A stretch of DNA of 11,058 bases from a virus. Its lineage: Duplodnaviria > Heunggongvirae > Uroviricota > Caudoviricetes. Position 1 is the stretch's first letter. Every line of letters starts with the position of its first letter. Positions 1 through 3,000 of this stretch are shown here, piece after piece. Position numbers: made by a program. The stretch is taken from IMG/VR virus record IMGVR_UViG_2695420763_000009; one strand, 5' to 3'.

Positions 1-3000
1 TCCATACTTAGATGTCCGTCTATATCAGATGGGCGTCTAAGTTACCAATTCTCGTCTGATGGCTACATACGGCGGTCAGTTTACGCTTACCATCAATGTT
101 AAAGAGCCTGCCAATCTGTTCCGTTTGGCTACCAGCGTCCTGCCGATGACTTAAATTTAAGATTTCTTTAACTATTGGTCAAGAGCGTTTTTGAAGAAAA
201 CTTAAATTTTGTTGCGAAGCTTAAGTTTTGCTTTGATTTTTAAAGGAAAGAAAAAAAGGGGCGAATGCCCCTTATGGAAGGTTTGCTATTTTTGCATCGA
301 CAACTACACCGATGATTTTGCAGTTCCCGTTGATCTCAATCATCGGATATTGTGGGTTAAGTGGTTTTAGAAACCTTCTGCCAGCATCAATAACTAACTT
401 CTTGAAAGTTGCCTCGTTTTCTCCTTCGAGCTTTGCCACTACCAGCTTCCCATTACGAGGTTCTACTTCAGGATCGACTAGTATTATCATCCCTTCCGGG
501 ATGCTAAGACCGGCTGGAGCCGTCATCGAATCACCCTTTACGTCCAGCCAAAACGAATCTTCTGAACAATCTACGGTTGTATCGTACCAGTTATCTATTG
601 CACGCTTATGATATGGCTCTACAGCTTCCATCCAACATCCTGCGCTTACCCAACTAATTAGAGGATACGAACCTCTTGGATCATGCCTGCTGTGATAGGC
701 AATGTTTGAAAGACTATCTTCTCCTTTCAACAAGTAATCAGGGGAGCACTGTAAAGCCTTGGCTAAAGCCAATAGGTTTTCGCCATTGGGCTCAGTTTCA
801 GAACGCTCCCATTGGGAAATAGCAACATTAGACACGCCAACCATCTTGCCAAGGGCAGCCTGCCTAATCTTAAGTTCTTTTCTGCGAGCGCGAATACGCT
901 CACCCATCAGTTGTGTATTCATAGTTAAGACATCTTAAATAAACTTGACTTAAGATTCCTTTGATAGATAATTTAAGTGTTCTTTAATTTCGGAGCGAGT
1001 CTATGTACAAGAAAGATGTTATCGACCACTTCGGAACCCAGCGTGCGGTAGCTAAAGCGTTAGGCATTAGCGATGCAGCAGTCTCTCAGTGGAAGGAAGT
1101 CATCCCAGAGAAAGACGCCTATCGACTGGAAGTCGTTACAGCTGGCGCCCTGAAGTATCAAGAAAGTGCTTATCGCAAAGCGGCATAAGCAAATTGCTCT
1201 TTAACAGTCATGGTCCTTATTCCCGCCGAAATGCGGGAATACAACGCGCATCAGTTGGTGCGTATAACTTCTTATTTGTTAAGGAAATACTTACATATGC
1301 AACTTACAAGTACTCGCAAGAAAGCGAATGCAATCACAAGCAACATCCTGAATCGAATTGCTGTACGTGGTCAGCGAAAGGTTGCTGATGCATTAGGGAT
1401 TAATGAATCGCAAATTTCGCGATGGAAAGACAGCTTTATCCCAAAGATGGCCATGCTTCTGGCTGTGCTGGAGTGGGGTGTTGAAGACGAGGAATTAGCA
1501 AAGCTAGCAAAGAAAGTAGCCATGGTGCTGACAAAAGAAAAGCCTCAAGACTGCTGCAACAGTTTTGAGGCCTGATGTAGAAAGACTGGATCAATCCACA
1601 GGAGTCATTATGACAAATACAGCAAAAATACTCAACTTCGGCAGAGGTAACTTTACCGGACAGGAGCGTAATGTGGCAGATCTCGATGATGGTTACGCCA
1701 GACTATCAAATATGCTGCTTGAGGCTTATTCAGGCGCAGATCTGACCAAGCGACAGTTTAAAGTGCTGCTTGCCATTCTGCGTAAAACCTATGGGTGGAA
1801 TAAACCAATGGACAGAATCACCGATTCTCAACTTAGCGAGATTACAAAGTTACCTGTCAAACGGTGCAATGAAGCCAAGTTAGAACTCGTCAGAATGAAT
1901 ATTATCAAGCAGCAAGGCGGCATGTTTGGACCAAATAAAAACATCTCAGAATGGTGTATCCCTCAAAACGAGGGATAAAACATCCCTCAAATTGGGGGAT
2001 TGCTATCCCTCAAAACAGGGGGACACAAAAGACACTATTACAAAAGAAAAAAGAAAAGATTATTCGTCCGAGAATTCTGGCGAATCCTCTGACCAGCCAG
2101 AAAACGATCTTTCTGTGGTTAAACCGGATGCTGCAATTCAGAGCGGCAGTAAGTGGGGAACAGCAGAAGACCTGACCGCCGCAGAGTGGATGTTTGACAT
2201 GGTGAAGACCATCGCGCCATCAGCCAGAAAACCGAATTTTGCTGGGTGGGCTAACGATATCCGCCTGATGCGTGAACGTGACGGACGTAACCACCGCGAC
2301 ATGTGTGTACTGTTCCGCTGGGCATGCCAGGACAACTTCTGGTCCGGTAACGTGCTTAGCCCGGCCAAACTCCGCGACAAGTGGACCCAGCTCGAAATCA
2401 ACCGTAACAAGCAACAGGCAGTCGTGACAGCCAGCAAACCAAAACTCGACCTGACAAACACTGACTGGATTTACGGGGTGGATCTATGAAAAACATCGCC
2501 GCACAGATGGTTAACTTTGACCGTGAGCAGATGCGTCGGATCGCCAACAACATGCCGGAACAGTACGACGAAAAGCCACAGGTACAGCAGGTAGCGCAGA
2601 TCATCAACGGTGTGTTCAGCCAGTTACTGGCAACTTTCCCGGCGAGTCTGGCTAACCGTGACCAGAACGAACTGAACGAAATCCGCCGCCAGTGGGTTCT
2701 GGCTTTCCGGGAAAACGGGATCACCACAATGGAACAGGTTAACGCAGGAATGCGCGTAGCCCGTCGGCAGAATCGACCATTTCTGCCATCACCCGGGCAG
2801 TTTGTTGCATGGTGCCGGGAAGAAGCATCCGTTATCGCCGGACTGCCAAACGTCAGCGAGCTGGTTGATATGGTTTACGAGTATTGCCGGAAGCGAGGCC
2901 TGTATCCGGATGCGGAGTCTTATCCGTGGAAATCAAACGCGCACTACTGGCTGGTTACCAACCTGTATCAGAACATGCGGGCCAATGCGCTTACTGATGC

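Follow-up and report, generated by a model that had tools for sequence, protein, structure and literature searches.

The window, by which we mean the whole stretch of DNA analysed here, is a complete contig of 11,058 bp (CYCV01000041.1) that belongs to the draft E. coli assembly GCA_001286025.1 and contains the early-right region of a lambdoid prophage. A LexA-family repressor of 216 amino acids is encoded on the minus strand (272-922), followed by a Cro of the P22_Cro family (1003-1188) and a CII of 92 amino acids (1297-1575). The O gene, on the plus strand, is truncated; its frame occupies 1610-1978 and its translation equals residues 1-122 of the intact O of a sibling prophage, hence O(1-122). 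The remainder of O, i.e. the linker and the C-terminal part, lies on the same strand in the +1 frame (1965-2489) and is separated from the O start codon. The helicase loader P is intact, with 233 codons on the plus strand (2486-3187), as seen from the ORF list, the match to PF06992 (Phage_lambda_P) and the siblings' annotation as replication protein P. The ren gene (3184-3474) lies 3′ of P and is followed by the nin region, after which there is an insert on the minus strand with lpxR, a lipid A deacylase gene (6467-7426). From lpxR to the window end we find ylcG, Q, two small genes and the start of a SASA-family esterase gene.

Several joints of a mosaic are visible around these genes. Positions 1-89 have no match in the otherwise near-identical sibling prophages and mark a joint left of the repressor gene, at the contig end. 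Another boundary, near position 1585, separates a non-lambda immunity and CII segment from a lambda-type O-P-ren-ninB segment; similarity to the prophage of E. coli Rb-23 begins there and extends to 4694, at 97.2%. The nin region ends in a short antiterminator-gene remnant that is annotated as incomplete in the siblings (in the stretch 6252-7426, together with lpxR). After it come lpxR on the opposite strand, ylcG and a second, complete Q (stretch 7903-8592), a layout that suggests a cargo insertion in which the late-gene regulator was replaced. The interval from Q to the SASA-family esterase (8762-11058), where Shiga-toxin phages have their tRNA and stx genes, holds just a 252-codon ORF and a DUF3927 gene; a tRNA scan and an Rfam scan of the window gave no matches.

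A search with the iteron consensus ATCCCTCAAAACGAGGGA, tolerating up to three mismatches, found exactly three sites in the window (1958-1975, 1982-1999 and 2005-2022), where about 0.01 would be expected by chance; none of 200 shuffled sequences had three sites. A repeat finder returned the identical three copies, spaced by 24 and 23 nt, in agreement with a preliminary description of this DNA that had placed iterons at 1958, 1982 and 2005. These iterons, 18-19 bp long and each with inverted symmetry inside it, are arranged in tandem. The sites at 1982-1999 and 2005-2022 are iterons 3 and 4, both unchanged and on the plus strand, on which the alignment, the consensus search, the repeat finder and the lambda annotation agree. 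The site at 1958-1975, also on the plus strand, is a hybrid, with a left arm from iteron 1 and a right arm from iteron 1 or 2, as judged from the alignments and the repeat analysis. Directly to the right of the last iteron, as in a lambda-type module, is the AT-rich unwinding tract (2024-2064, plus strand), which equals lambda in the alignment and whose coordinates were mapped from the lambda ori (39034-39160; PMC3349717). A lambda-type module has four iterons and the window has three. The element is a disrupted member of the lambda-type origin-initiator module, with ori inside O, followed by P.

A 20-bp deletion in the iteron array

Four iterons are annotated in lambda (NC_001416), and four are present in an intact sibling prophage of E. 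coli Z1322HEC0001, which is 99.8% identical over window positions 90-11058 and has a 900-nt O. Alignment of the window with either sequence gives a single 20-nt gap and no further indel in the origin. It had been proposed, by comparison with a lambda sequence, that exactly one iteron unit of 20 bp is gone; both the lambda sequence given and the size proved correct against NC_001416, and four iterons with an in-frame O of 299 codons are found in lambda as in the closest relatives.

The deletion fuses iterons 1 and 2 across an 11-nt direct repeat, AAAACGAGGGA, whose copies in these two iterons lie 20 nt apart in the intact parent, according to the repeat analysis. Since one copy is kept in the window, the breakpoint can be anywhere within 1965-1975. 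The parent origin holds other direct repeats as well. One of 13 nt would delete 67 bp, the 11-nt repeat 20 bp, repeats of 10 nt either 44 or 23 bp and one of 9 nt 7 bp, all out of frame, and a repeat of 8 nt would delete 15 bp in frame. The two longest match two deletions that are seen in the window's own prophage family, 20 bp in the window and 67 bp in JNE132847 and ETEC H10407; the JNE132847 prophage is 99.9% identical to that of the window. We suggest slipped-strand mispairing, or another short-homology event, between the copies of AAAACGAGGGA in iterons 1 and 2. Judged by repeat lengths alone, slippage is most likely the mechanism, and it fits the pattern of deletions.

The window comes from a draft assembly, and draft assemblies often break inside this origin, where many 'partial' O proteins of 115-141 amino acids end. 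One could therefore suppose that the isolate truly has four iterons and that one unit was collapsed by the short-read assembler or lost as a library artefact. However, the repeat common to both units is just 11 nt, far below assembler k-mer sizes. A metagenome scaffold of 1024 nt in ENA, which stems from an unrelated project, matches window positions 1191-2214 at 100% identity, with the junction in it, and the same junction is present in two complete genomes, Rb-23 and 1002W03. An artefact is thus highly improbable, and the deletion is very probably real, as far as sequence comparison can tell.

In Rb-23 and 1002W03 the O gene is labelled by PGAP (NCBI) as an 880-nt 'frameshifted' pseudogene. 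Its haplotype differs from that of the window, with SNPs to the left of the deletion at window positions 1912, 1916 and 1957 and to its right at 2038 and 2069, and the immunity and nin regions of this prophage are unlike those of the window. Because the O haplotype and both regions differ, the deletion in these two genomes is independent, and the same 20 bp were lost at least twice.

Where several lambdoid prophages share this origin, assemblies commonly break in it. Draft contigs often end in or just before the iterons (window positions 1958-2022; proteins P0007, P0008, P0010, P0011, P0018 and P0023), and one such partial O protein is found on up to 88 contigs, in O157.

Over positions 90-11058 the window differs from its intact siblings by six SNPs, one 1-bp indel and the 20-bp deletion. 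The other window genes are all full length and there is no further decay in the 11 kb. These few differences, together with the full-length genes, indicate that the lesion in O is recent. The 1-bp indel is an extra T at 7617, in an intergenic T-run upstream of ylcG (seven T against six in the siblings), and is either real or a homopolymer error.

Consequences for O and for the origin

As 20 is not a multiple of 3, the deletion shifts the O frame. Translation confirms the earlier account of a frame that ends at the TAA at 1976-1978, with the rest of O in the +1 frame; from the ATG at 1610 there are 122 codons, in place of the uninterrupted initiator frame of about 299. O(1-122) has wild-type sequence to its end and carries no out-of-frame tail. 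It contains a complete Pfam Phage_rep_O domain (PF04492; residues 22-115, E 8e-37), and a sequence search of O against solved structures gave no matches. From KTRDKTSLK on, the +1-frame translation equals the C-terminal part of intact O and reaches the regular O stop (2487-2489), with which the P start overlaps; a Pfam search of this remainder returned no family matches. The lesion, a frameshift with an immediate stop, is of the kind that defines an O-null prophage.

Three ways in which a functional O could still be made were considered and rejected. Programmed +1 frameshifting at GGA-TAA-A finds no basis on inspection of the sequence, since a slippery codon is lacking and the glycine tRNA could not pair in the +1 frame. 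Re-initiation does not give a functional protein either, because the first plausible starts in the +1 frame lead to a C-terminal fragment that has lost the DNA-binding domain. A compensating downstream indel is absent from the alignment up to the O stop.

In lambda, the P-DnaB complex is brought to the O-bound origin by the C-terminal part of O. O(1-122) retains the whole origin-binding domain and lacks the linker and the C-terminal part. Where full-length O is missing, a productive initiation complex would not be assembled, and the prophage would not start its own theta replication after derepression. O is a null allele, from which we infer that initiation of replication by the prophage itself is most likely impossible. 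This agrees with laboratory prophage mutants that survive replicative killing, in which lesions in O have abolished initiation (PMC6022878, PMC3640518).

The truncated protein might instead have its own use: an origin-binding domain that lacks the recruiting part could act as a dominant negative and exclude related phages by blocking their origins. The product does end cleanly past a complete DNA-binding domain, with no aberrant tail, and the same 122-residue product occurs on several haplotypes. Yet the clean stop follows automatically from the junction sequence, the other recurrent deletions yield different products with tails, and some of the 122-residue database entries may be partial genes at contig ends. 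Moreover, O is transcribed from the repressed rightward promoter and so would not be made in the lysogen. Such a function of O(1-122) is very unlikely, and simple loss of O is the reading that we retain.

The preliminary description had explained the deletion by iteron-iteron recombination that both inactivated O and crippled the origin. The deletion between direct repeats inside iterons and the inactivation of O both stand; the crippling of the origin is not supported. Iterons 3 and 4 and the AT-rich tract equal those of lambda, and three or even two iterons are reported to be enough (PMC7466680). In the earlier work that this paper sums up, a lambda with three iterons grows and its burst is normal (Moore 1981), unwinding needs no more than two iterons and the AT-rich tract (Dodson 1986), and replication in vitro no more than the two iterons that adjoin the tract (Wickner and McKenney 1987). 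As the window keeps three iterons, including the two that adjoin the AT-rich tract, its origin is, from this literature, probably usable when rightward transcription is on and an O with matching specificity is provided. The lesion affects the protein and not demonstrably the cis site.

Could the deletion also have destroyed the cis-acting origin, such that there is no replication even when O is supplied? Laboratory ori-minus mutants include small iteron deletions, e.g. a 24-bp deletion that removes iteron 4 (PMC6022878), and the fusion of iterons 1 and 2 shortens the bent array, though the spacing of iteron 3 is altered on its far side only. The known cis-dominant laboratory deletions, however, affect iterons 3 and 4 or the AT-rich tract and not iterons 1 and 2 (PMC6022878). 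Iterons 3 and 4 and the tract are all intact here, and three iterons for normal growth, or the two proximal ones in vitro, are reported to be enough (PMC7466680). A dead cis site is therefore unlikely.

With the origin in cis and P intact, the prophage might escape its defect by hitch-hiking on the O of a co-resident or superinfecting lambdoid phage of the same origin specificity. Lambda-type origins occur at up to 4-5 places per E. coli genome, and the ends of the contig lie in sequence common to other prophages. Against this, complementation by O in trans is weak and is blocked by co-expression of P (PMC6022878). A repressed origin stays silent even with O and P supplied in trans, because firing needs local transcription (PMC5043065). 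The contig is also unbroken through O-P-ren-nin, which speaks weakly against a second near-identical copy in the genome. That helper phages make the prophage effectively non-defective is quite unlikely, and on sequence grounds this copy is very probably not self-replicating, which bears on predictions of inducibility and gene transfer for the strain.

Recurrence of origin deletions in E. coli prophages

Lambda-type origins are found in about 1,320-1,340 of 5,426 complete E. coli genomes, at about 1,700-2,100 places. Among the genomes with such an origin, two have the 20-bp junction. Exact scans with the 42-nt junction found no copy in species-representative genomes, IMG/VR viral contigs or JGI metagenome contigs, sets to which the source genome does not belong. 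The 20-bp allele is rare.

The 67-bp junction between iterons 1 and 4 has exact matches in ten complete E. coli records, namely H10407 and its duplicate SEC470, S88, three O157:H7 strains, JNE132847, 15.03CC, N53 and N62, and these represent at least three different prophage contexts. At this site, which is 4845-4899 of the JNE132847 stretch compared here and is seen also in H10407, S88 and O157:H7 PV15-279, one iteron is left and O is frameshifted.

The products of the repeat-mediated deletions were predicted on the sibling and lambda haplotypes and then looked up as exact sequences in public assemblies. The 67-bp product was found on 18 contigs and 3 contigs, the 44-bp product on one contig per haplotype and the 23-bp product on four contigs, with the lambda haplotype only. 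The 7-bp product was found at the protein level on 21 and 10 contigs, with a further variant on 39 contigs (proteins P0038, P0039 and P0042). This 7-bp deletion, between AAAAGAAAA repeats in the AT-rich tract (2024-2064), would be predicted to frameshift O and also to damage the unwinding tract. The in-frame 15-bp product was not found, in a look-up of lower sensitivity than the rest since an exact match over 294 residues was required. For the 20-bp deletion we counted only cases verified at the DNA level, since a 122-residue product has no out-of-frame tail and entries of that length could be partial genes at contig ends. Accordingly, the 32 contigs with the 122-residue product on the lambda haplotype (P0033), which may include such partials, were left out of the evidence.

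Among deposited phage genomes with this origin, the 20-bp junction is present in none of 133 records and the 67-bp junction in none of 140. We rejected this absence as evidence of purifying selection: with about 0.6% of prophage copies affected, some 135 records would be expected to hold fewer than one case, so the absence says nothing about selection.

The repeats of the origin itself are a hot spot at which deletions recur, and the window is a case of ordinary prophage decay at such a slippage hot spot. Owing to the layout of lambdoid phages, in which the origin is inside the gene, one slippage event between iterons knocks out the initiator. Taken as a whole, it is likely that the window carries a recent and real 20-bp deletion in a lambda-type origin inside O, one of a recurrent class of repeat-mediated, O-inactivating deletions in E. 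coli prophages. O genes of this kind are already flagged as frameshifted by PGAP; in open-access text, we did not find a paper on recurrent iteron-mediated O knockouts in natural prophages.

A bolder proposal is that the lambda-type origin, being made of direct repeats and placed within O, serves as a built-in and repeatedly used off-switch for prophage replication, with out-of-frame iteron deletions under positive selection in lysogens, which would be freed of replicative killing and express less of the toxic P, and with O(1-122) perhaps blocking the origins of related incoming phages as well. We consider this decidedly unlikely, and decay at a hot spot is the account that we prefer. The recurrent events in ETEC H10407, S88 and O157:H7 nevertheless form a natural data set on whether the loss of prophage replication is selected, and counting iterons could be a quick marker of replication-dead lambdoid prophages. 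The single case of the window matters little by itself; the main by-product of this work is the survey of the origin repeats as a recurrent deletion hot spot.

Comparison with known systems

The iterons of lambda (NC_001416, 39034-39118), its AT-rich tract and the flanking parts of O are nearly base-for-base those of the window, and in both P is followed by ren. The window differs in having one 20-bp iteron unit fewer and a frameshifted O. It is also of another immunity type, with the 216-residue repressor, the P22_Cro-family Cro and the 92-residue CII.

Small deletions within the origin of a prophage are also known from the laboratory. The lambda ori-minus deletions r93, r95, r96, r98 and r99 of Rambach and Denniston-Thompson were re-sequenced by Hayes (PMC6022878), and they abolish the initiation of replication. 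They are all in frame (12, 15 or 24 bp), lie in iterons 3 and 4 or in the AT-rich tract and act in cis (PMC6022878), whereas the deletion in the window shifts the frame and involves iterons 1 and 2. The r class combines an in-frame deletion with a functional O; the window, with 20 bp lost and O truncated, does not belong to it. At least the 15-bp deletion of the r class is flanked by short direct repeats, which is a result of our repeat analysis of the intact origin and not of PMC6022878.

A closer likeness is to the survivors of replicative killing isolated in the Hayes laboratory. These RK-minus ilr mutants carry insertions or small or out-of-frame deletions in O, have lost the initiation of replication and do not complement O amber phages (PMC6022878, PMC3640518). 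They stem from laboratory selection on a non-excisable, heat-inducible prophage, and their likeness to the window rests on the class of allele and not on its position. Both are O null alleles in a prophage, and the window is the natural counterpart.

The natural 67-bp deletion of ETEC H10407, S88, O157:H7 and JNE132847 is of the same mechanism class, here with a 13-nt direct repeat, and O is annotated as frameshifted in these genomes too. In H10407 and JNE132847 it even occurs in the same prophage family as that of the window. It differs in that one iteron is left and that the product has an out-of-frame tail of 50 residues, and the origin with this deletion is probably dead as a cis site too.

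Other iteron arrays vary in number without the loss of the initiator. The origins of Shiga-toxin phages have six iterons, and the change is in frame (+13 codons) and functional (PMC7466680). The origin of an IncX1 plasmid lost a 22-bp iteron in short-term evolution, with its iterons outside the initiator gene (PMC6118388). As these two systems illustrate, iteron arrays gain and lose whole units in nature (PMC7466680, PMC6118388).
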